A stretch of DNA of 64,000 nt. Source: Candidatus Omnitrophota bacterium (GTDB lineage Bacteria > Omnitrophota > Gorgyraeia > Gygaellales > Profunditerraquicolaceae). The notes beneath the pieces were generated by a model, which was not told the origin of the DNA, did not search any database, and saw nothing but the letters and a program-made list of their open reading frames with translations. Each line of letters opens with the position of its first letter. Positions within the stretch are counted from its first letter, which is position 1. The position numbers and the translations under genes are program-made. Below are positions 14,501 through 54,957 of this stretch, piece by piece. The DNA is taken from the NCBI GenBank assembly GCA_016208765.1, contig JACQXK010000001.1, positions 192,365-256,364 on the forward strand, written 5' to 3'.

Positions 14501-15724
14501 ATGAAACAAGAAGTTACATCAAAAAAAGTGTTCATTCGCACGCTGGGCTGTCAAATGAACGTCCGGGATTCGGAGGTAATTGGAGGGTTGCTTGCGAGAG
14601 CAGGGTATGAGATTACCGACGATGAACAGCAGGCGGATATTGTGATTTTTAATACCTGTTCTGTGCGTCAGATGGCTGAAGATAGGGTATGGAGCGCGGT
14701 GGGAAATGCTGTAAATAGAGAAAAGCATAGGGACAGTCCCCAAAAAGCGGGGACAGTCCCTATAATTGGTATTACAGGCTGTATGGCAAATAATTACCGG
14801 GAGGCAATTTTTGAGAAAGCGCCGGCTGTTGATTTTGTGGTCGGCACTGCGGATATTGGAAAGCTACCGGAAATCATAAAAGAAATCCAAAAACATAAAG
14901 GCAGCCTCAATGAAAAGAAGATTTATGAAACAGACGCAGAATTTCGCGAGGATGAAATTTATCACACTGGATTCAGGCTTGATAAAGAACATGCGTTTGT
15001 GGTAATCTCGGAGGGATGTGAGAATTTTTGTTCTTATTGTGTGGTGCCTTATGTGCGGGGAAAGTTGCGCTCGCGTGATCCTGAGGATATTTTAAAAGAA
15101 ATAAAAGCAGATGTTGATGCCGGGATTTCTAAGATTACTCTTTTGGGCCAGAATGTGAATGCGTATCATTGGGTAGATAAAAACAGGGACAGTCCCCAAA
15201 AACCGGGGACAGTCCCTGTTTTTACTTTTGATTTTGTAAAGCTCCTGACAATGGTTAATAGAATAAGCGGTTTAAAAGAGTTTACTTTTGTTACCTCACA
15301 CCCCAAGGATACATCAATAGAATTATTTAAGGCAATGGCTGAGTTGGATAAATTAAGAAAATACATGCATCTTCCGGTGCAGTCTGGTTCGGATAGGATC
15401 TTAAAAATGATGAATCGCAGGTATACCAGGGAAAATTATTTAAATTTAGCAAAGAGTTATCGTGAGATTGTCAGGGGTGGTGAGCTTACTACTGATATTA
15501 TTGTGGGTTTTCCCGGTGAGACAGAAAAAGATTTTCAGGATACCTTTGATTTGGTAAAAGAAGCGGAGTTTAATGCTGGTTTTATTTTTAAATATTCACC
15601 TCGGCCGCATACTGAGGCTTTAAAATTGCCTGATGATGTGTCAAGAGAGGAAAAAGAAAGGCGCCACGCCTTAATTTTAGAACTGCAGAAGAAAATATCA
15701 AAGAAGCTAAGAAAGAAAATATGA
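14501..15724 (+). CDS. miaB: tRNA-2-methylthio-N6-dimethylallyladenosine synthase (radical SAM methylthiotransferase). It carries two in-frame 11-aa palindromic-element insertions.
   Basis: VFIRTLGCQMN MTTase N-domain, CxxxCxxC radical-SAM cluster (CENFCSYCVVP) and a C-terminal TRAM region. Insertions 'RDSPQKAGTVP' and 'RDSPQKPGTVP' correspond to the DNA elements at 14729-14761 and 15185-15217. Confidence 0.9.
   Translation: MKQEVTSKKVFIRTLGCQMNVRDSEVIGGLLARAGYEITDDEQQADIVIFNTCSVRQMAEDRVWSAVGNAVNREKHRDSPQKAGTVPIIGITGCMANNYREAIFEKAPAVDFVVGTADIGKLPEIIKEIQKHKGSLNEKKIYETDAEFREDEIYHTGFRLDKEHAFVVISEGCENFCSYCVVPYVRGKLRSRDPEDILKEIKADVDAGISKITLLGQNVNAYHWVDKNRDSPQKPGTVPVFTFDFVKLLTMVNRISGLKEFTFVTSHPKDTSIELFKAMAELDKLRKYMHLPVQSGSDRILKMMNRRYTRENYLNLAKSYREIVRGGELTTDIIVGFPGETEKDFQDTFDLVKEAEFNAGFIFKYSPRPHTEALKLPDDVSREEKERRHALILELQKKISKKLRKKI
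14729..14761. repeat. 33-bp palindromic element AGGGACAGTCCCC-AAAAAGC-GGGGACAGTCCCT, inserted in-frame in miaB.
   Basis: Two copies of the near-palindrome GGGACAGTCCC separated by 7 nt. The same element recurs at 15185-15217 and, in reverse orientation, at 32625-32653 and 32828-32856. Confidence 0.85.
15185..15217. repeat. Second copy of the 33-bp palindromic element (AGGGACAGTCCCC-AAAAACC-GGGGACAGTCCCT), in-frame in miaB.
   Basis: Differs from the first copy by one spacer nucleotide. It is flanked by AAAAC/GTTTT, which extends the palindrome. Confidence 0.85.
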
Positions 15725-29310: not shown

Positions 29311-30588
29311 TTGCCTATTTTCCTGAAAAATACCTTCCGGTTAATTTTTCTTCTCGTTATATTCTTAGCCTTGCCAGTTTTTTTTCTTCAAAAGAAACTC
29401 CTTTCTTCAGGCCCATTCTTCTTGTTTTACCTGATTAATCTTACGTTTATTATCATTTCGGCAAACAGGGTTTCTAAAAGAAAATTTGCAGTTCAATACG
29501 AAAGCCAGAAGATTGAAGAAGGCCTGAATGTTTTGTCCGCGGATAATCTTAAAGAAGATAAACACAATATCAACCTGCAGCAAAAAACAATCCGCTATAA
29601 CAGTCTCAAAGAAATAATTGAAGAATTAAATCAAAGGCTTGATGTTGATTTTGTCGCCGGTAAGCTCTCGGGAATTGTATTTTCTTTGCTTGCCGCAAAT
29701 AAAGGGGCCTGTCTGTTGTATTTAGTGGATAACCAGACGCAAAGGCTCTCTTTGTTTAAAACAAAAAAAGAAAATTCCGGCATGGTGGTTAAGGCAAAAG
29801 AAGGCGATATGTTTGATTTGTGGGTACTCAGGCATACGAGCCCATTATTGGTTGAGGATGCAAAAAAAGATTTTCGTTTTGATTTAGATAAGTTTAAAAA
29901 GGATGATTCAAGGCAGGTTGAATCTTTAATCAGCTCTCCTTTGGTAAGCGGGCAGAAACTGATTGGGATCTTGCGCCTTGATTCTCCTGTTAAAAATGCA
30001 TTTAGCCAGGATGATCTGCGTTTCTTGGCTACGGTTTGTGAAATAGGAGCAGTGGCCCTGGAAAACAGCCAGTTGTTCCAGAAAACGAGGGATTTGGCGA
30101 TCCACGACGGGTTGACCTCGCTTTATACCAAGGGATATTTTCTGGAGCGGTTAAAAGAGGAATGCCGCAGGGCGTTGCGTCACGGCTCAGAGTTGAGCCT
30201 GTTAATGCTTGATATTGATTTCTTTAAAAATTATAACGATAAGTTTGGGCATAGCGCAGGAGATATTGTTTTAAAGAATTTAACGCGCTTATTGAATGAA
30301 TCCTCTAAGGGTGAAGATGCGGTTTTAGGCCGTTTTGGAGGAGAGGAATTTTGTGTGATCTTAAAAGGAAAAGACAAAAAAGATGCGCTTATTTTTGCGG
30401 ATGGATTGCGCCAGAAGATTGAAGGCGAGTCCGTAACCTTGCGCAGGGAAAGAACAAGCATTACTGTATCAATAGGCGTTGCAAGTTTTCCTCCGGATAC
30501 AACCGATGAAAATGACCTGGTGCGTAAGGCAGATGCGGCAATGTATGAGGCAAAGAAAAAAGGAAGAAATCAGGTATGCTGTATTTAA
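29311..30588 (+). CDS. Membrane-anchored GAF-GGDEF diguanylate cyclase.
   Basis: N-terminal TM helices, a GAF-like middle region and a GGDEF domain with RFGGEEF. Confidence 0.8.
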   Translation: MPIFLKNTFRLIFLLVIFLALPVFFLQKKLLSSGPFFLFYLINLTFIIISANRVSKRKFAVQYESQKIEEGLNVLSADNLKEDKHNINLQQKTIRYNSLKEIIEELNQRLDVDFVAGKLSGIVFSLLAANKGACLLYLVDNQTQRLSLFKTKKENSGMVVKAKEGDMFDLWVLRHTSPLLVEDAKKDFRFDLDKFKKDDSRQVESLISSPLVSGQKLIGILRLDSPVKNAFSQDDLRFLATVCEIGAVALENSQLFQKTRDLAIHDGLTSLYTKGYFLERLKEECRRALRHGSELSLLMLDIDFFKNYNDKFGHSAGDIVLKNLTRLLNESSKGEDAVLGRFGGEEFCVILKGKDKKDALIFADGLRQKIEGESVTLRRERTSITVSIGVASFPPDTTDENDLVRKADAAMYEAKKKGRNQVCCI

Positions 30589-31559
30589 CCGCACTGTTTT
30601 TACTGACTTTAATTCTGCAGGTTTATGTTTTAAGATTGCTGCGCATTAATTTTAATAAGGCAGATACAAAATTGAAACAATTAACAAGAAAGCACGCCAA
30701 TTTATTTAAGAAAAATGCTGCGCTTAAATCCGAGAACGCAGTTTTAGGAAAAAGTACTGAAGAAATTATCCAGATATATGAAGTTACCAAAAATATCTGC
30801 AAGAGCCTTGATGAAGAACAGGTCTTTAATAGTTTCCGTGAAGATGTAAGCCGGTTCATTAAATTGGATGATTGCAAATTCCTGAGTGCTGGAGAAGATA
30901 CTTCTCGGTATGATAAAGAAAATGTTTTGCCGATAAATATTGACGATAGTTTGGTTGGGTATCTTGCTGCTATTAATTTGCGCGCTGACGAACGCGAAGA
31001 ATTTTTTATTCTTGGAGGACAGTTCAAGCTTGGAATTGAAAGGGCGATTCTTTACAAAAAAGTCCAGGAGCTTGCGATTACCGACGGACTTACACAACTT
31101 TTGAGCCGCAGGTATTTCTTGGAAAAGTTTGCTGAAGAAATAGAGCGTTCACAGAAATTTGGGCTAAGTTTTGCTTTTTTGATGATTGATTTGGATAATT
31201 TTAAAAGCTTTAATGACCGTTACGGGCATTTAGTGGGAGATGCATTGTTAAGAGAAGTGGCGAATGGTATTAAAGAAAATATAAGGCAGATAGATTTTAT
31301 CTGTCGTTATGGCGGTGAAGAAATTGCGCTGGTGTTGGCTGAAACGAACCAGGAACATGCCCGGCTGGCAGCTGAGCGTATACGCAGGTCAATTGAATCA
31401 AAAAATATTAACATTTATGATGAAGTGCTTAAGATTACAATCAGTATAGGTATGTCTAATTTCCCGGATGGAAAGGCAGACGCAAAGTCGCTTATTGAAA
31501 AAGCAGATAAGGCTTTGTATAAGGCAAAGCAATCCGGCCGCAACAAAGTTTGTTTCTAA
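30576..31559 (+). CDS. GGDEF-domain protein (variant GGEEI active-site motif) with an N-terminal TM/coiled-coil and a GAF-like region.
   Basis: RYGGEEIAL in the GGDEF domain. It overlaps the upstream GGDEF gene by 13 nt. Confidence 0.75.
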   Translation: MLYLTALFLLTLILQVYVLRLLRINFNKADTKLKQLTRKHANLFKKNAALKSENAVLGKSTEEIIQIYEVTKNICKSLDEEQVFNSFREDVSRFIKLDDCKFLSAGEDTSRYDKENVLPINIDDSLVGYLAAINLRADEREEFFILGGQFKLGIERAILYKKVQELAITDGLTQLLSRRYFLEKFAEEIERSQKFGLSFAFLMIDLDNFKSFNDRYGHLVGDALLREVANGIKENIRQIDFICRYGGEEIALVLAETNQEHARLAAERIRRSIESKNINIYDEVLKITISIGMSNFPDGKADAKSLIEKADKALYKAKQSGRNKVCF

Positions 31560-31639
31560 AGAAACCCCTTTCTTTTTACCCCTGCTTTACCCTTGTTTCA
31601 CTCTCCCTGTATATTATACTTATCTTACCTATTATATTT

Positions 31640-31722
31640 AGGGACGGTTCTGATTTGCGCTTAAAAGTGTCCCTTACTATTTAAAGCAGGGACAGTTTTA
31701 ACCGTGTTTCAGAACCGTCCCT
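31640..31722. repeat. 83-bp nested palindrome in the GGGAC family: AGGGACGGTTCTGA…AAAAGTGTCCCT-N13-AGGGACAGTTTT…TCAGAACCGTCCCT.
   Basis: Outer 14-bp perfect inverted repeat and inner roughly 12-bp inverted repeat. It lies 25 bp upstream of the giant gene start. Confidence 0.8.
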
Positions 31723-31746
31723 AACTTACACACTTTTCACTACCTT

Positions 31747-34700
31747 ATGACTAAAAGACTCTCTAAACTAATTGCCTTACTTTTAAGCTTTCTACTGCTA
31801 ATAGAGCAAGCAGGCTTTGCAGCTGGTGGTGCCATAGACCTATCAAGCCAATTCTCTAAGCTTGCCTCAGGCATATCTACTACTCTATCATCTGCTACTA
31901 CAGCTACCTTTCGTCCCATACACCTAAGATACCTGGAGTATCTACCTAAAGATAACAGCTTTAAGCTGCTCTTAGATAAAGGTAGCGTAGATACGTCATT
32001 GCGAGGCGCTTCACAGAGTAGGATAACGAAGCAATCTCAAAACCAGATTGCTTCGTCGCTCGTTTCGCTCGCTCCTCGCAATGACGATTTACACACCTTA
32101 CACCCCATATCGCAAGCTGAACTACAAGACCTCCAATCCACCACCCAAGACCTAATGAACTACTTCTACATAGGCCTCACACTACCTAATGATTCCTTCT
32201 GGGTTAACCTAAGACCTGCCCCGTTGATGACCGAAGGTCAATCTACGGGGACTGACTCACCCAACAACATCATAGACTCCTACCTATCTAAAACAGATAT
32301 AGGCAGAATTCTTCTTGAAGCTGATGTACAGCTAAAGAAAGACACCTCAAGCTACACTAACCCAGCTACTCCTATAGGAAAGCAATACTGGAATAAGCTC
32401 TACAAGAAAGCCTCTGATCTCTTTGGAACAGACCAGATTACTATCCCTACCCTAACAAGACCATGGATAGTTCCAGGAGAGATAATCATAAGAGAAAGTC
32501 TGTCACCTGTTGCCAGTGTTGGACAGGAGACAGGTGACAGGAGACAGGCGACACATCCCTCTGCCTACATCTACAAAGCTACCCTTAAAGTAATGCTTGA
32601 AGAAGACTACTTGAAGGGACTGTCCCCGAAGGGGACTGTCCCTGGTTCAACAGACTACTCCTTCACTGATCCGCGCCTTAAAGAACTCAACTCCTACTCT
32701 ACAGAACTAATCAAAGAACTAATCATCCCCAAACTGACTAAAGAGGTAAACTCCTCTAAAAGATACTCTAAGCTAAGACAGGTATACTACTCTCTAATAC
32801 TTGCTCAATGGTTTAAGTCAAGGCAGAAGGGACTGTCCCCGAAGGGAACTGTCCCTGATTTGATTGACTCTAAAAATCTCTCTAACCTAACCTCTAAAAC
32901 TACTTGGGATAAAGCTACCTACTTCAACCAATACCAACAATCCTTCACTAAAGGAGAATACAATACCAAGGAAACAGTCTATACACCTTCTGGACAGGTG
33001 ATCAGGAGTTATATGAGTGGAGGGATTACCTTGATGCAAGGGAGTTTTCCTATTCAGCAAGGGGCTACTTTTGAAAGCCAAGCCGGAAGCCCGATTAAAG
33101 TAGTCCCTGCCAACAGCCCTATTCCAGAAACTCTAAAAAATATCGCAGTAGAAATTAGTTGTTCGGTTTTAAATTCAGACAATTCTACAGTACAGTTAAT
33201 TCCAGAAGTATCATCTGAGAAAATGTATACGCCAGCCAGTTCTTCAGTAGTAAATCACGAAACTAGCGTAGGGCAACTTGTGCTTTTAGAAAAAAGAGAA
33301 TTCCGCTGGCTTCCGGAAGATATTACTAAAGTTGAACAACTGATTCCTGAATTGAAGAAATTTAGCCGAGGCGCAGAGGGTGTTGTGAAGCAGGAGGTAG
33401 CAATCTCACTTTTAGCGGGGCTGATTAGAAAGGAAAACTCAAAATCAATCGCAGCTTTTGAGGATTTAGCTGGACAGATAAAAGAATTTATTGCTCCGAA
33501 ACAAAGGCTTAGCTTAAAGTATGTATCGCTGAAGATTATAAATGCCGCAGCGCAAAATGGAAATCCGGTGGCATTAAAGCTAATCAAGGAATCAACAAGT
33601 GATTTAATAAAAACAATTATTGCGATTGAGCAAAAAGGAGATGTTTATGAAGGGCTTCAAGATATGGTGTTGGATGAGATGCTGGCGTTGTTGATTAGAG
33701 GCGAAAATAACGCATTATTAGAAATAGCAACAGCTTTATCCCAAGGATTAAGGGAAAATCTTCCATCAAGCCAGGATATAAATGAGATCAAGGGAATTCG
33801 TCAGCTCTTTAAACAAGCTCTCAATATGTCAGGTCTTAAGGTAATATTTAAGCTCCGTGAGATCGCAGCAATCCGCGCAACCAATAGTCTCATTCAGGCA
33901 TTGGAGCTTGATACGGAAGACATAATTTACGGTTACTGCGAAGAGCTAAATAAGAAGATGGTGCAGGAAGCAATTGAAAAAGGAGAGCTTCCTCCCGGCT
34001 ATTCTACTAAAAAATATACAGATTCGGCGGATCAGCATCAAAAGGATATCGTAGTAATATTTAATGATAATCAGTCTTTAGGCAGATCAGCCGACAAATT
34101 ACAATTACCTTATTACATTTTTAAATACGGGCTGCCAGAACCATTACCGCAGGAAATTGTAGCTAGAATGCGGCAAGAGATGAATATAGGAAAGCGCAAA
34201 GTGATTGTCGCCGGGTCAGTTGATCGGCAAGAAATAGGCGTTTTAATGGCTGCTTATAATAGTTTATACCGCAATCTCCCTGTAGAACAGCGTCCGTTAT
34301 TAGTTTTGGCTCCTCGGGATATAATCGATTTAGATGATGTGGATTTAAGTCAGCCAGATGCGCCTCTTGTGCTTAAGCAGGGAGAATTGTTAAAATCTTA
34401 TGCCTTAGCCGATGTTTGTATTGTAGGTAGCGATCGTAATATTTTAGAGCCATCAAGCCAGAGAAAATTGGTGTTGTATTTCTCGGGTTATTGGCGCAGC
34501 AATCAGCAAGCGAAAGATATGCTAGTTTCTTCGGGCGGAGCAATAGAGTTTAATCAAGATAATCTCTCTCTAGCGGTAAATAATCCGCAGATAACGCAAG
34601 AATTGGGAGAGAAAGGTTTTAAGATAGTGCAAGAATTCAAAAATAAGATTATTCCACAAACAACGGATATCGCGGCAATCTTCGGATTGTCTTTGTTGAT

Positions 34701-37700
34701 TAAGAAAGTAGCACAGCAACGCGCCGCCTCATCGGTAGTGGAGAAAAAAACAGAAACGTCATCTGGCTTTCTCCAAGGGTCTTCGTCTTCGGCTGTCGCA
34801 ATAAGTGATTTCTACGCAGAACAGTTAAAAACAAAATTTTATATCTCACCGCACCAGCAGGAAGCAATAGATATTTTGGAAAAATACAAAGCGTATTTTA
34901 GCAGTGGCATGAATATTCAGCAGAAGGATGGAGATTGCTTTAGCGGTGGAGTTGTCAATTACGCTCAAGCTTTGATAGGAATTATAGCGGGTTTTATTGT
35001 TGTCAGCCAAGATAAAAAAAGCTTAGTTTTTCTTCAAGCACAAGGCCTTGTTAATCTTCGTGGCATGGTTAACGCTTTAGAGTTTTTGGAAAAAAACAAA
35101 ACTTCCTATGAAAAAAGGGGAATGATTAGGGATGAGGTTGGGGCAATAGGCATAGGCTTTTCATATCAAGAGGCAAAAGCTGGGATAATATCCGGGGTTG
35201 TGATTGTCTCGCTTAAAGGGGATGAATTATTGGTCAAGCAGGGTAAAAACAGGTCAGATGTCCCTTCTTATGTTGTTGTTGATATTTGGGGCCGGCCGAT
35301 GGTTGTTACTATCGGGTTTGCCGATAAATTAATGTCTGCTGCTGTGGCAGGGCGTAGGGCTAAAATTGAAAAAAATCCATCAGAGCGAGAAAGGCTTGCC
35401 TTGGAACAGTCTCAATATCTAAGCGCAGTAATTGATGGTGTTTCTATTGCTCACGTTGGAGATTATTTTGAGGCGAATGGAAATCTTTTCATAGTTAATA
35501 AGGTATATATAGAAACTGATGAAAATGGCAGGTTAGTATCTTTTAATTATTTTGGTGAACAAGCCCCTCTTCAGCAAGGACAATTGAGTTTTGCGTCTCG
35601 GCGGTTGCAATTAAATCATTATTATCAGCCATTATCTCAAAAAGAGGTAGAGGATTTTCTTAAAGCCAGGGAGAATGAAAAACAACAAGCGGATAGAAGG
35701 AATTTACAGGTTAATGTGGAGTCATTAGAAAAGAAAGTTAATAATGGGCTTAACTGGGGAACAGAAGGCAACGTAGCCAAACTCTTGTCTGAATGTGAAA
35801 AAGCAGGGTTTGAAGATTTGCTTGGGCGTATGAGAAATGTCTGCGCAGGGTTTGTTGATATTCGGCGCATCTATGATACATACGGTAAAGATATTAATAA
35901 AATATCTGTTTTATTAGAGCAACTTGCTTTTAGTCGGGCCGAGAAATTAGTTGAAGTTTTATCTCTACGTTCTCAACTGGAAGAAATTATAAAACAAATT
36001 GAGCAAGATAATGGGAATAAAGCAGCTTTAGAATTCTGGGACAAGGAAGCGAAACATTTGCTTGGAAAAGTTAATAAGTTGTTGGGCCGTTTAGAGCAGG
36101 ATGCTTCTTGGCGTAGAAGGCAAGTTGCGCGCAGGCAAGTTCCGATGAAGCGTTTGGGTTCTCTGTATCCCGGAGAAAGAAGGCAGGAAGCAAAAGAGCT
36201 TTTTTGCGATTCGGAAAATCCCGTAACTATTATTATTGGTAGTGGAACGATATTGGAAATAGGTAAAGATAGTTTCGGTTTTTTTGTGGTTCGTGCTAAT
36301 GAGGTAGACAGAGAATTTGGGAGAAGGGTATATATCAGTGAGCAAGGCATAAAGATAGGCAGTGACAGGCAAACGGGTTATTTGCGTATAGGGGATGTAG
36401 TTTCTACTGCTCATAAGGATTCCTTGGTTTCTAGGGAACATCTGGAGATTAGTGTTATTGACCAGCAGACTATTAAATTAGCTGATAAAGGTTCTCTTAA
36501 TGGCACAAGTTATAGAGTTTTTGAGGGGGAGCTGGTTAATCCTGTTTATGAACGTTCGGAGGTTGAAGAATTAGCCTTGGCTGTGGCGGCAAGGTTAGGC
36601 GGCGGGGGATTGTACTTTGATTCAGACAAAAGGAAAATAGGGGAAAACAGGGTTTTTGAAGCCCGCGACAGTCTTGAGGTGATTTTTGGACAGCGGGAAG
36701 GAAATAAAGAAGAAGCATCAGAAAATCTTTTTAAATTCTTCCGCAGATATGGGATTATTTTTATCTATGAAAATAATTTTGCTTTATTAGGCAAAGTTGA
36801 GAGCGTTATTCCTGTTTCCTACCGGTTTTTCAAAAGGGTATTATTGATAAAGCCGTGGTATCAAAAGGGAATGGAAAATATATTGGGATTTTATTCAGGG
36901 CGAATCCAATCACTAACCGAAGGATACGCAATCTTAGGCCAGCGCGGAGAACAGGAAACATCAGAAGAAAATCGTCTTACTGGAGTTCACGAGGCTAATC
37001 ATGGGTTTGATTCAAGCGAAATAATTGAACTTAACAGAATTGGCAAAAGAGTTGCGGTTGATGCCACAATGTTTGAATATACAGCTTATTTGGCGATGTT
37101 GTTGGTAGAGGATGAAAAGGCTGCTTATCATGCCTATATGGAAATGTATGAAGTTTATCAGCAGTATAATTTTAAAGGCAACTATCCAAATCCGAATATT
37201 GCCGCACAATGCAGAATTATCGGCGAGTACCAAGAACAAGGTCATCACGGAGACTCTTTAACTAATGAAACTATTAGGAAGATGGCACAACAATTAAGAA
37301 ATAACTATTATAATGAATTTTTTGGTTTTGTTCCTTCTTATCCTGATGTTTGGCAGGCATTTTCAAAAGCTCAAAACGCCTCCTCGGCTGTGACAGGCGA
37401 CTCCTCGACTAAGCTCGGAGTAAATAGTCGACTGGAGACTGGTGACACTAAAGGCGGTATTGACTTCCGTAGCCTCCCCATCGTCACCCAAGCTGTCTCT
37501 AACTTAGGCTTAACTACTATGAATCAGGAGCTAAGGAATAGATTAATGAATTTTAATCTAAGCTCTGAGCTAAATGAAATAGAGAAACTCACTAATGCAG
37601 GTATTACCCCCTCAACCCAAAGAATTAAAGAATACATTCAAGCAAGCTCCATCTCTATTAATTCCCCAGAAGATACCCAGAAACTACTCTCCTGTATTGC

Positions 37701-37791
37701 AGATATCCTCAGAAAACAGGAAGAAGAATGCTGCCCTACAGATCCTACCTTAAAAGATATTCTTGTAGTATTGGAATCAGGGATAAGTTAA
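31747..37791 (+). CDS. Giant secreted multidomain protein (2014 aa) with a GT30/Kdo-transferase-like region and a C-terminal-proximal FHA domain. It also carries two in-frame palindromic-element insertions.
   Basis: Signal peptide MTKRLSKLIALLLSFLLLIEQAGFA. Region …RKVIVAGSVDRQEIGVLMAAYN…LLVLAPRD…ADVCIVGSDRNILEPSSQ…SSGGAIEF resembles the KdtA C-terminal fold. FHA-like region …YLRIGD…SREHLEI…DKGSLNGT. The insertion peptides are GLSPKGTVP, twice. Confidence 0.6.
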   Translation: MTKRLSKLIALLLSFLLLIEQAGFAAGGAIDLSSQFSKLASGISTTLSSATTATFRPIHLRYLEYLPKDNSFKLLLDKGSVDTSLRGASQSRITKQSQNQIASSLVSLAPRNDDLHTLHPISQAELQDLQSTTQDLMNYFYIGLTLPNDSFWVNLRPAPLMTEGQSTGTDSPNNIIDSYLSKTDIGRILLEADVQLKKDTSSYTNPATPIGKQYWNKLYKKASDLFGTDQITIPTLTRPWIVPGEIIIRESLSPVASVGQETGDRRQATHPSAYIYKATLKVMLEEDYLKGLSPKGTVPGSTDYSFTDPRLKELNSYSTELIKELIIPKLTKEVNSSKRYSKLRQVYYSLILAQWFKSRQKGLSPKGTVPDLIDSKNLSNLTSKTTWDKATYFNQYQQSFTKGEYNTKETVYTPSGQVIRSYMSGGITLMQGSFPIQQGATFESQAGSPIKVVPANSPIPETLKNIAVEISCSVLNSDNSTVQLIPEVSSEKMYTPASSSVVNHETSVGQLVLLEKREFRWLPEDITKVEQLIPELKKFSRGAEGVVKQEVAISLLAGLIRKENSKSIAAFEDLAGQIKEFIAPKQRLSLKYVSLKIINAAAQNGNPVALKLIKESTSDLIKTIIAIEQKGDVYEGLQDMVLDEMLALLIRGENNALLEIATALSQGLRENLPSSQDINEIKGIRQLFKQALNMSGLKVIFKLREIAAIRATNSLIQALELDTEDIIYGYCEELNKKMVQEAIEKGELPPGYSTKKYTDSADQHQKDIVVIFNDNQSLGRSADKLQLPYYIFKYGLPEPLPQEIVARMRQEMNIGKRKVIVAGSVDRQEIGVLMAAYNSLYRNLPVEQRPLLVLAPRDIIDLDDVDLSQPDAPLVLKQGELLKSYALADVCIVGSDRNILEPSSQRKLVLYFSGYWRSNQQAKDMLVSSGGAIEFNQDNLSLAVNNPQITQELGEKGFKIVQEFKNKIIPQTTDIAAIFGLSLLIKKVAQQRAASSVVEKKTETSSGFLQGSSSSAVAISDFYAEQLKTKFYISPHQQEAIDILEKYKAYFSSGMNIQQKDGDCFSGGVVNYAQALIGIIAGFIVVSQDKKSLVFLQAQGLVNLRGMVNALEFLEKNKTSYEKRGMIRDEVGAIGIGFSYQEAKAGIISGVVIVSLKGDELLVKQGKNRSDVPSYVVVDIWGRPMVVTIGFADKLMSAAVAGRRAKIEKNPSERERLALEQSQYLSAVIDGVSIAHVGDYFEANGNLFIVNKVYIETDENGRLVSFNYFGEQAPLQQGQLSFASRRLQLNHYYQPLSQKEVEDFLKARENEKQQADRRNLQVNVESLEKKVNNGLNWGTEGNVAKLLSECEKAGFEDLLGRMRNVCAGFVDIRRIYDTYGKDINKISVLLEQLAFSRAEKLVEVLSLRSQLEEIIKQIEQDNGNKAALEFWDKEAKHLLGKVNKLLGRLEQDASWRRRQVARRQVPMKRLGSLYPGERRQEAKELFCDSENPVTIIIGSGTILEIGKDSFGFFVVRANEVDREFGRRVYISEQGIKIGSDRQTGYLRIGDVVSTAHKDSLVSREHLEISVIDQQTIKLADKGSLNGTSYRVFEGELVNPVYERSEVEELALAVAARLGGGGLYFDSDKRKIGENRVFEARDSLEVIFGQREGNKEEASENLFKFFRRYGIIFIYENNFALLGKVESVIPVSYRFFKRVLLIKPWYQKGMENILGFYSGRIQSLTEGYAILGQRGEQETSEENRLTGVHEANHGFDSSEIIELNRIGKRVAVDATMFEYTAYLAMLLVEDEKAAYHAYMEMYEVYQQYNFKGNYPNPNIAAQCRIIGEYQEQGHHGDSLTNETIRKMAQQLRNNYYNEFFGFVPSYPDVWQAFSKAQNASSAVTGDSSTKLGVNSRLETGDTKGGIDFRSLPIVTQAVSNLGLTTMNQELRNRLMNFNLSSELNEIEKLTNAGITPSTQRIKEYIQASSISINSPEDTQKLLSCIADILRKQEEECCPTDPTLKDILVVLESGIS
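32625..32653. repeat. Palindromic element in reverse orientation (AGGGACTGTCCCC-GAA-GGGGACTGTCCCT), in-frame in the giant gene.
   Basis: Reverse complement of the miaB element core. It encodes GLSPKGTVP. Confidence 0.85.
32828..32856. repeat. Second reverse-orientation palindromic element (AGGGACTGTCCCC-GAAG-GGAACTGTCCCT), in-frame in the giant gene.
   Basis: Same core with one substitution. It encodes GLSPKGTVP. Confidence 0.85.
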
Positions 37792-51765: not shown

Positions 51766-52248
51766 CTACCATTTTAAAAGCGGTATTTTATATCCTTCCT
51801 TGTTTGGGTCGTCTACTTTATATTTTGGTTTCATTAACGGTTTATCATAAGGAGGCAATCCGCTTGTTGCCACATCAACGCTGCCTGCTATTCCACGTGC
51901 GATTCCTGTGACTATCCCTTCTCCAAAGCCCACAATTGAGCCGACAACAACATTGCTTTTCTTTGAATTTTCTTGAATTTTATCCGGGACATCAACCCAG
52001 GATGTTAACACGTTAATTAGGCCTTCGCCCATTTTATAACCGGCAGTATTTTTATCAAGTTTATTTGTGTTGACGTTTTCCAGAAAAGCGCTTGGGATGG
52101 GCCTTAGGCTCACTCCGGCTACAGAAGGTGCAACTATTTCAGGTTGGGCGTAAATATTTGCGCAGGCAAAGAAGATCAAAGCTAAACTTGCCATTAAGAG
52201 CACTAATTTCTTCATCTTCCACCTCCTTGGCAGCCCCTCTATCCACAC
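51766..52248 (-). CDS. Small secreted protein, paralog of 51347..51760.
   Basis: Signal peptide MKKLVLLMASLALIFFACANIYA. C-terminal motif …GLPPYDKPLMKPKYKVD. Confidence 0.6.
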   Translation of the reverse strand: MWIEGLPRRWKMKKLVLLMASLALIFFACANIYAQPEIVAPSVAGVSLRPIPSAFLENVNTNKLDKNTAGYKMGEGLINVLTSWVDVPDKIQENSKKSNVVVGSIVGFGEGIVTGIARGIAGSVDVATSGLPPYDKPLMKPKYKVDDPNKEGYKIPLLKW

Positions 52249-52427
52249 ACTGGTCGGTGTAGGGACAGGTAACTTTGCGCCCCAGCATTGCTGCTGGTTT
52301 GCCTTTTTTCAATAGGTCCAAAGTAAATATAACATATTTGATTTGCTTATTCAAGGCAGAGGCTGGAAAAGTATTGTAATTAATGTAGGGGTATATATAA
52401 TAAGAATAGCCAGAAAAGGGGGGTTAT

Positions 52428-53084: not shown

Positions 53085-53158
53085 GGGCCCATAGCTCAGT
53101 TGGTCAGAGCAGGTGACTCATAATCACTTGGTCCGGGGTTCAAGTCCCTGTGGGCCCA
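53085..53158 (+). tRNA. tRNA with anticodon CAT. It is an elongator Met or a lysidine-modified Ile2 tRNA; it is not an initiator type.
   Basis: Cloverleaf folded by hand: acceptor GGGCCCA/TGGGCCC, D-arm GCTC-AGTTGGTCA-GAGC, anticodon arm GGTGA-CTCATAA-TCACT, T-arm CGGGG-TTCAAGT-CCCTG, discriminator A. Confidence 0.85.
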
Positions 53159-53174
53159 GAGATGAAATTGACGA

Positions 53175-53248
53175 GGGCATTTAGCTCAGTTGGTTAGAGC
53201 GCTACATTCACATTGTAGAGGTCAGAGGTTCAAGTCCTCTAATGCCCA
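53175..53248 (+). tRNA. tRNA-Val (anticodon CAC).
   Basis: Acceptor GGGCATT/AATGCCC, anticodon arm CTACA-TTCACAT-TGTAG, T-arm AGAGG-TTCAAGT-CCTCT, discriminator A. Confidence 0.85.
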
Positions 53249-54481: not shown

Positions 54482-54846
54482 TTGGGGTAGGTGGAATGTG
54501 GCTGCCCCTGCGTCAATTGGCGTAGGGGAGGAAAGTCCGGGCTCCGGAGGACAACGTAATGGCTAACAGCCATCCCTCGGTGATAAACCGGGGAGGATTA
54601 GAGCTACAGAGACGAGCCCCCGCGCCTTGGTGCGGGGGAGTGAAACGAGCAATCTCTACGTGGAGCAAGGTTCAATAGGGGATGAGCTTCGTAAAGAAAT
54701 TTATGAGGCAGGTGCTGGTCCGGCGCGTTATTAATCCCGGGTAGACTGCTTGAGTCCCGGCAGAAATGCCGAGGAACAGAGAAATGGTCACTAATGGTGC
54801 GGATATTCGTACTGAAACAGAACCCGGCTTATTCTTCTTGCCCCAA
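54482..54846 (+). ncRNA. rnpB: RNase P RNA (bacterial type-A-like).
   Basis: Contains the universally conserved GGAAAGTCCGGGCTCC (P4 5' strand) and ACAGAACCCGGCTTA (P4 3' strand). The 5' TTGGGGTAGG and 3' CTTGCCCCAA can form P1. Confidence 0.85.
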
Positions 54847-54957
54847 TATTAGTTTAGGGCTAATAGTATATTGTTTGTTGCAAAATCTTGCGATAGGCGA
54901 TATGCGATAAGCATAATGATTTAAAATAAAAAATCAATTCTAAAGGGAGGTAATACA

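Follow-up and report, generated by a model that had tools for sequence, protein, structure and literature searches.

A stretch of 64,000 nucleotides (nt) from contig JACQXK010000001.1 of a Candidatus Omnitrophota bacterium, here called the window, carries four copies of a short palindromic element based on the 13-mer GGGGACWGTCCCC. All four lie inside genes and in frame, two in miaB and two in a giant gene. The miaB gene (14501..15724, plus strand) encodes a tRNA methylthiotransferase of 407 amino acids (aa), and NCBI has a protein with 100% identity to it from a Candidatus Omnitrophica metagenome-assembled genome (MAG), encoded on a contig of 258,789 bp. Its copy 1 (14729..14761, plus strand) is arranged as AGGGACAGTCCCC-AAAAAGC-GGGGACAGTCCCT; it is A-centred, and its 33 nt form 11 codons for RDSPQKAGTVP, residues 77-87. 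The core of copy 2 (15185..15217, plus strand), AGGGACAGTCCCC-AAAAACC-GGGGACAGTCCCT, encodes RDSPQKPGTVP, residues 229-239, and together with TAAAAAC/GTTTTTA flanks it makes up an extended palindrome of 47 nt (15178..15224, plus strand) with 20-nt arms that are 95% complementary. The giant gene (31747..37791, plus strand) encodes a secreted protein of 2014 aa and keeps its frame on either side of each element. Copy C, AGGGACTGTCCCCGAAGGGGACTGTCCCT (32615..32643, plus strand), is composed of AGGGACTGTCCCC-GAA-GGGGACTGTCCCT and has T at its centre when read on the coding strand; the A in front of it (32614) completes 10 codons, KGLSPKGTVP, which are K290-P299 of the giant protein. Copy D, AGGGACTGTCCCCGAAGGGAACTGTCCCT (32828..32856, plus strand), is composed of AGGGACTGTCCCC-GAA-GGGAACTGTCCCT and encodes KGLSPKGTVP again at K361-P370, so that the common form of both is AGGGACTGTCCCC-GAA-GGG(G/A)ACTGTCCCT. 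The initial annotation had placed these two copies at 32625 and 32828; the second position was right, while the first was 10 nt too far to the right. That a palindromic element sits in frame twice in this gene was borne out, since KGLSPKGTVP is read both times and both copies are insertions relative to homologues. The number of intragenic copies given there, four in 64 kb, was also right: the 11-mer GGGACWGTCCC occurs 8 times in the window, every time inside the four doublets, two per gene.

When one mismatch was allowed, the 11-mer matched 15 times on both strands against 0.27 expected, and 0 of 100 shuffles reached 15; matches with two mismatches were at chance level. As single-stranded DNA (ssDNA) each of the four copies forms a hairpin, with energies from -9 to -19 kcal/mol (z -3.2 to -8.7); the base at the centre is always unpaired because both arms carry the same centre letter. 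The hairpin of miaB copy 2 reaches -18.9 kcal/mol (z -8.7). Copy C folds at -14 kcal/mol (z -5.9) around a T.T centre mismatch, and a single G>A change weakens the stem of copy D to -9.2 kcal/mol. The stems in miaB and in the giant gene are identical and in opposite orientation (centre A versus T) but their loops are unlike, 7 nt and 3 nt, therefore they represent two variants of one family. The earlier view that the giant gene holds the miaB element reversed was correct for the stems and did not hold for the element as a whole, which is not one sequence flipped. No stop codon occurs in any of the six frames of the four copies, the 30- and 33-nt coding forms are multiples of three, and the encoded peptides are of GxxP type and rich in glycine, proline, serine and threonine, as suits a loop. 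These three properties make coding insertion possible. The frame GGG-ACW-GTC-CCN gives GTVP in either orientation because W, at the centre, falls on the third position of the threonine codon; in the other frames the peptide depends on orientation (GQSP versus GLSP, GDSP versus GDCP). The proposal that palindromy preserves the encoded peptide in both orientations is thus valid for one frame of three. Within the window only the second arm shares this frame in both genes (GTVP), and the first arms read RDSP in one and GLSP in the other because the loops differ in length.

Repetitive extragenic palindromes (REPs) are known to occur as doublets which pair into larger hairpins (REPINs), and the same kind of pairing was found here. 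Pairing and covariation were calculated on 25 distinct copies, for which some cells may descend from one event: 93.7% of cells were paired in the half-to-half hairpin, and covariation was 0.168 against 0.114 in shuffles (0/500 reached it). A sub-family with a compensatory A-T to T-A change, GGGTCTGTCCCC..GGGGACTGACCC, occurs at more than one site. Inside the single halves the palindrome showed no excess. The hairpin between the two halves is the unit, and the doublet pairing is REPIN-like. In a partial census of about 350 kb of Omnitrophota DNA with 23 doublets, both halves had the same centre base in 23/23, and the centre mismatch is thereby kept; the two cysteine-containing frames were not seen in genes of this census. 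Mismatches in the stem were G.T in 15 cases and A.C in 11, which were called equally frequent. The lack of an excess of G.T over A.C gives no sign of a constraint specific to sense RNA, and a sense-RNA-specific structure was rejected on this ground.

The giant protein is a member of a family of hundreds of Omnitrophota proteins of 1,100-3,500 aa, which have a common N-module (approximately residues 1 to 430-470, including the signal peptide), a variable middle and a common C-module (approximately 1900-2014, about 110 aa). A Pfam scan of the 2014-aa protein found no domain, and neither the N-module nor the C-module had a Pfam match. The variable middle of the family is an enzyme-rich cargo (window 31747-37791, loci L122-L202). 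Both copy C and copy D are within the conserved N-module. An AlphaFold model of residues 222-432 had a predicted local distance difference test score (pLDDT) of 39.7 and was too poor to use. Two copies in one gene could have come from an internal segmental duplication of the host, the event that the initial annotation had named as fatal to its reading if extended flanking homology were found. The copies do share 44 nt at 86% identity, and their right flanks are alike in 10 of 14 bases past the core. Beyond these 44 nt no homology was found on either side, and the protein segments around C and D match separate regions of the N-module that are not repeated. The element itself also occurs in miaB, in other genes and in other genomes, while most N-module homologues are without one or both copies. 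Segmental duplication was rejected because the similarity stops within 44 nt, and it is hardly credible as the origin of these copies.

Comparison with homologues showed that the element-bearing positions are variable in both host genes. When 28 Omnitrophota MiaB proteins were aligned, length varied mainly at the two element positions, and many orthologues are empty there. The closest miaB orthologue, which is syntenic and about 90% identical in nucleotide sequence (L121), has neither copy; there site 1 is shorter by 27 nt, and a heptamer array resembling (CGGTCAC)n occupies site 2 in place of the 47-nt palindrome. In the AlphaFold model of MiaB (mean pLDDT 78.6), copy 1 is in the coil that joins helix 57-74 to strand 88-93, and copy 2 is in coil 226-241 with pLDDT below 50 at residues 230-235. 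For the giant gene, the DNA of 80 further N-module genes was compared, 59 of which were aligned at sites C and D, the positions of the two copies. At site C about 22 of the 59 have a short form, K(D/G/N)S(A/S/T)T, relative to which copy C of the window is a clean 27-nt addition. At site D about 30 of the 59 have the empty form xRFxGKxGxYxx, and an identical element in the same frame and orientation is present in L122, L160 and L150. Genes with the element at site D fall into at least five separate groups of a tree that is poorly resolved, and two sister genes, L184 and L196, are in different states.

The occupied sites also differ in what they carry. Among genic copies of the N-module family 17 of 19 are T-centred and read KGLSP(K/Q)GT(V/D/L)P, a count inflated by shared ancestry, and KGLSPKGTVP recurs at three hotspots of the family. 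Copies in opposite orientation were found at site C of L158 and at site D of L152. At MiaB site 1 the window has the state RDSP..GTVP; L030 has GTVP..GQSP, in the same orientation with a register shift of one base and with an identical 45-nt copy at its site 2, and P0009 has KGLSPKGTVP in what its peptide indicates to be the opposite orientation. Since the same hotspots carry the element elsewhere in other frames, orientations and loop variants, insertion is recurrent and independent. In many lineages the same sites hold decayed copies or unrelated fillers, which at the N-module hotspots include GTAG-type palindromes, members of the CGTCATTGCGAG family, heptamer arrays and a 78-nt AGGGACGGTTCT...AGAACCGTCCCT element. 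By these alignments all four window copies sit at permissive hotspots for insertion and deletion, are insertions relative to homologues and are polymorphic in their presence.

The comparison of element codons with host codons, which had been proposed as a dN/dS-style check, was made as codon identity. The test used four genes that have KGLSPKGTVP at site D in common and whose modules are only 52-60% identical. At identical amino acids the codons agreed in 89% of cases inside the element versus 40% outside, which places the conservation at the DNA level rather than at the peptide level. Selection on the GTVP/GLSP loop peptide, with the DNA palindrome as a by-product, would fit the return of KGLSPKGTVP at three N-module hotspots and the occurrence of genic T-type copies only in the cysteine-free frame. 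Against it, at least five states of frame and orientation occur (RDSP..GTVP, GTVP..GQSP, GQSP..GDSP, GLSP.GTVP, RDSPLRGQS), the element is also present between genes, and the element codons are rare GC-ending ones that are identical between genes of only 52-60% identity. As the same DNA is read in several frames, peptide-level selection was rejected and is very improbable. Copies from one locus have the same length in 55% of pairs versus 9% between loci, and are identical in 16% versus 0.8%. The variants are genome-specific and not site-specific, which speaks for copies recently made or homogenised inside each genome and against long-standing conservation of single sites.

Distribution of the family was studied by scanning a set of species-representative genomes and IMG/VR for the doublet GGGACNGTCCC-N3-12-GGGACNGTCCC. 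In the genomes it was found in at least 120 loci, from Omnitrophota, Planctomycetota, Gaiellaceae and other Actinomycetota, Oxalobacteraceae, Aminicenantes and Patescibacteria. Of 164 doublets, 140 have A or T at the centre of each half, the same base in 100 of them and complementary bases in 40. IMG/VR had the doublet in 13 contigs versus 2, 1 and 0 for three composition-matched palindromic doublets (6-13 times commoner); a phage origin was rejected because these 13 contigs are its only occurrences there. Outside the window most copies are between genes: where GC is below 0.5, 38% of them are in open reading frames (ORFs) of at least 200 aa versus 79% of random positions. In the Omnitrophota MAG E14_maxbin.165 (L071) the element is right behind the stop codons of argF and argG. 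The 11-mer was also observed as tandem arrays with a period of 14-21 nt in L013, L014, L040, L070, L105, L213 and L215. Rfam, searched with gathering thresholds and with E<=1, gave only generic hairpin matches to miRNA models far below cut-offs, and a literature search for the 11-mer and 13-mer gave only unrelated eukaryotic primers. In two papers on Omnitrophota giant genes the words palindrome, hairpin and in-frame are absent.

The main rival explanation is that the hairpins are functional cis-elements selected at the nucleic-acid level, acting as attenuator or terminator, in mRNA stabilisation or processing, as translational pause or as protein binding site. The strong conservation of synonymous sites and the stem covariation are in line with it, as are the conservation of the 13-mer across phyla, its over-representation against controls, the position of the L071 element exactly at gene 3' ends and the centre mismatch kept in all 23 Omnitrophota doublets of the census. 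In addition, the 47-nt palindrome of miaB conforms on either strand to the consensus of intrinsic terminators (with TTTTTACTTT or TTTTTATCTA after the stem), yet it lies mid-gene. In the giant gene a terminator scan found only a 5-bp sub-stem with a T-poor tail in copy D (32843-32856) and did not flag copy C; the count of terminator-like structures in the copy D region, 3, is not above shuffles (mean 1.8). Site 3 of the L030 miaB has a cleaner mid-gene terminator look-alike, GGGGACAGTCCCC-A7-GGGGACAGTCCCC-T8. Several observations count against a cis-acting function. The closest miaB orthologue is without both copies, and in many lineages decayed copies, heptamer arrays or other palindromes are at the same sites. 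The orientation differs between the two host genes although they are transcribed in the same direction, the G.T and A.C counts give no sign of selection on sense RNA, and the genome-specific rather than site-specific loop variants hint at recent copying. A functional intragenic hairpin is, on balance, rather unlikely.

RAYT-like Y1 (HUH) tyrosine transposases are the class of enzyme thought to mobilise REPs, RAYT standing for REP-associated tyrosine transposase. A search by tblastn with E. coli RayT, followed by a hidden Markov model (HMM) from 120 homologues, was made for such genes. A Y1_Tnp (PF01797) gene was present in 4 of 133 element-bearing loci (L001-L120, L203-L215). In the Planctomycetota MAG NIOZ-UU85 (L099; 3000-3990) the Y1 gene (PF01797, 56.7 bits) is bracketed by GGGGACTGTCCCC units. 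Its orthologues in independent metagenomes (L221-L227), with 65-72% identity, share the same neighbourhood, between the gene of a 499-515-aa protein and a BPD_transp_1 permease gene. In L099 and L221-L227 GGGGACWGTCCCC units are about 15-200 nt from the Y1 gene on both sides; in the orthologous loci they form doublets, triplets or quadruplets on either side, and their number varies between samples with an identical Y1 protein (L221 versus L222, L226 versus L227). A Y1 gene flanked likewise, with a protein 31% identical, is on an IMG/VR contig of 33% GC (L204; 1-900). The Y1 gene and its flanking GGGGACWGTCCCC units form a REPtron-like layout in two unrelated backgrounds. In a REPtron, the transposase gene is flanked by REPs (Di Nocera et al. 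2013, PMC3733652).

Movement without any transposase is the other mechanism to be weighed, by slippage or template switching together with short-patch gene conversion at sites prone to insertion and deletion, as for the heptamer arrays. One way to read the doublet is as a 14-20-nt unit duplicated in tandem; it may be a minisatellite-like array of only two units, the longer forms being the tandem arrays described above. Site 3 of L030 has a partial extra unit, copies within one gene are identical variants, simple heptamer repeats are among the hotspot fillers, and a RAYT was not found in about 400 kb of Omnitrophota sequence. Such a process cannot put the same 27-33-nt sequence into unlinked genes, in different frames and in different genomes. 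The REPtron-like arrangement in two unrelated backgrounds suggests an enzyme-linked family, and a 13-bp stem is short for conversion that depends on RecA. Slippage and conversion alone are quite unlikely to account for the copies. We infer that a RAYT-type enzyme, and not gene conversion or template switching, would be what moves the element in this Omnitrophota genome.

The copies are probably explained by a selfish repeat of REP/REPIN type that is tolerated in frame. The element consists of two adjacent copies of GGGGACWGTCCCC, mutually paired into a 13-bp hairpin whose centre always stays unpaired. In this explanation such repeats would be copied around the genome, most copies landing between genes. 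A copy landing in a gene would survive only if the frame stays intact and free of stops and if a tolerant surface loop is hit, and it would then be translated as a short loop rich in glycine, proline, serine and threonine, of which KGLSPKGTVP and RDSPQKAGTVP are examples. Both pairs, that of the giant gene and that of miaB, would be survivors of this kind, for which a function in the host protein is not required.

Several findings do not sit easily with a selfish repeat of REP type. The GTAG tag is absent from the four window copies (flanks ATAG, ACAG, GAAG and GAAG), and GTA precedes GGGAC in only 6 of 280 flanks from 120 genome loci, L071 with CCAGTAGGGAC being an exception. Membership in the GTAG-tagged REPs was rejected on the 6/280 flanks, and the missing tag therefore places the family outside the two tagged super-families of PMC3733652. 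The Y1/RAYT search by tblastn and HMM found no such gene in the window or in about 400 kb of Omnitrophota sequence. All four canonical window copies are intragenic. No target-site duplication or clean empty site could be defined from a very close relative, and at site D the element replaces the ancestral GKxGxYxx with a net gain of about 2 aa, which is not a plain addition. Copies in one gene always have the same variant, frame and orientation, which local copying or gene conversion fits as well as transposition or better. The genic T-type copies occur in one frame only, and this may reflect shared ancestry or selection and not insertion at random. A broader scheme can be entertained with low confidence. 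In it, REP-type hairpins of Omnitrophota (GGGGACWGTCCCC, CGTC-type, GTAG-type and heptamer) would re-colonise the same loops and be homogenised or locally copied within genes, generating loop diversity and possibly attenuators, driven by a RAYT clade of cross-phyla specificity (13-bp stem, obligatory W.W mismatch, no GTAG tag). If true, the loops re-colonised would include those in the N-terminal module of hundreds of large secreted proteins.

The element resembles the REP/REPIN-RAYT system in being a short, GC-rich, imperfect palindrome that is repeated, other genomes having loci with several copies, and that has genome-specific variants, and in that its doublets pair into a larger hairpin. 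Its copies elsewhere are mostly extragenic and often at gene 3' ends, and a single-copy syntenic Y1 gene is flanked on both sides, with a variable number of units, in Planctomycetota and on an IMG/VR contig. It differs from that system in that the GGGGACWGTCCCC family has neither a GTAG nor a CGTC tag; the unit itself is an odd 13-nt palindrome whose halves share the centre base, leaving a W.W mismatch; the four window copies are all intragenic and an Omnitrophota RAYT was not found in about 400 kb. Uptake sequences, DUS (DNA uptake sequence) of Neisseria and USS (uptake signal sequence) of Pasteurellaceae, are over-represented short motifs that often form terminators as inverted pairs and are tolerated in coding regions; they are lineage-specific and number thousands per genome. 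The present element shares with them a short over-represented motif, tolerated in genes in particular frames and at less constrained positions. Nothing ties the GGGGACWGTCCCC motif to competence, in contrast; it is tied to a Y1 transposase gene. Transposable elements of the miniature inverted-repeat type (MITEs) are similarly non-autonomous, hairpin-capable, multi-copy and sometimes in frame in genes, but they have terminal inverted repeats derived from insertion sequences (DDE-type) and target-site duplications, whereas the window element is one far shorter hairpin. No insertion sequence was seen in the window.

Palindromes inserted in coding genes were recognised before in other bacteria. 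Rickettsia palindromic elements (RPE-1 and others), reportedly described by Ogata et al. in 2000, are said to be selfish, to lie in frame in coding genes, to be translated and to occupy sites compatible with the protein fold. The present element is likewise a palindromic repeat in frame with conserved flanks, and its MiaB inserts are in coils of low pLDDT. RPEs are about 100-150 bp long and are found in Rickettsia only, while the window element has 27-47 nt and its unit is present in many phyla; it does not belong to the RPEs. Intragenic REPs with GTAG or CGTC tags are documented in Opitutus terrae, Thauera and Xanthomonas, and as RPE-4/6 in Rickettsia conorii, where single and dimeric REPs within the ORFs of known proteins encode about 10-30 additional residues (dimers 20-30), sometimes twice per ORF (Di Nocera et al. 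2013, PMC3733652). They are mostly at different sites, with the exception of recB in Xanthomonas, and were proposed by those authors to be neutral because of their position in linkers and loops (PMC3733652). O. terrae and the Omnitrophota both belong to the PVC group. In the window, too, the inserts are within ORFs, two per ORF. The window element is of a different, untagged sequence family, and in the present case several unrelated repeat families make repeated use of the same hotspots in hundreds of paralogues and orthologues. Selfish palindromes in frame within genes are thus already known from Rickettsia RPEs and from REPs in a few Proteobacteria and Opitutus. New are the Omnitrophota lineage, the untagged GGGGACWGTCCCC family with its obligatory centre mismatch, the spread across phyla and the re-use of loops by several families.

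Besides C and D, and unrelated to them, at least two more palindromic or repeat insertions are present in the giant gene. A composite palindrome of 93 nt starting with CGTC (31994-32086), CGTCATTGCGAGG...CCTCGCAATGACG, folds at -28 kcal/mol and encodes SLRGASQSRITKQSQNQIASSLVSLAPRNDD in frame. It is absent in most homologues and resembles the CGTC-tagged REP super-family; its relatives occupy hotspots in L123, L126 and MiaB P0116. The NCBI model of the giant gene (P0121, HY761_01220, 1878 aa) begins at residue 137, right after this element. Residues 1-136 (window 31747-32157), which contain the signal peptide and a FRPxHLRYL motif, align with 30 homologues, and the deposited model is probably truncated by the CGTC repeat. 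A third insertion relative to homologues consists of GACAGGN heptamer repeats and an 18-nt inverted repeat (32500-32555), in frame as SLSPVASVGQETGDRRQATHPS. Similar heptamer arrays (GTCACCN, CTCAGCN, CAGAGYA) occupy the same hotspots elsewhere, as well as miaB site 2 of L121. An intergenic hairpin of 87 nt (31638..31724, plus strand), related to the element, lies 23 nt upstream of the giant-gene start codon and folds at -29 kcal/mol (z -10); it has the termini AGGGACGGTTCTG...CAGAACCGTCCCT and the inner pair GTGTCCCT/AGGGACAGT. The long family to which it belongs is also in frame at site C of L149 (P0150: RDGSQPEAKVSPKEGHFKIGLRTVPD).

Just upstream of the giant gene are two GGDEF genes (29311-30588 and 30576-31559). 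The window further contains a c-di-GMP-I riboswitch on the minus strand (52226-52313, 58.4 bits), which overlaps the 5' end of the minus-strand ORF 51766-52248, two tRNAs (53085-53248) and an RNase P RNA (54485-54847). GC skew is strongly positive across positions 1-64000 (0.08-0.24), and the plus strand holds the large majority of long ORFs; the window probably represents one leading-strand segment.

The findings extend in-frame selfish palindromes to Omnitrophota, an uncultured phylum noted for very large proteins, and describe an untagged REP family, GGGGACWGTCCCC, that is present in many phyla and linked to a RAYT-like gene in Planctomycetota and on one IMG/VR contig. Inserts of this kind inflate and fragment gene models, as in the giant gene whose NCBI start lies after one of them, and give rise to spurious small ORFs, for example with GTVP and GDSP peptides. 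They mark permissive loops of proteins and could serve as strain markers. The re-use of hotspots together with the identity of copies in the same gene makes these genes a tractable case for the movement of REPs and their effect on protein evolution.

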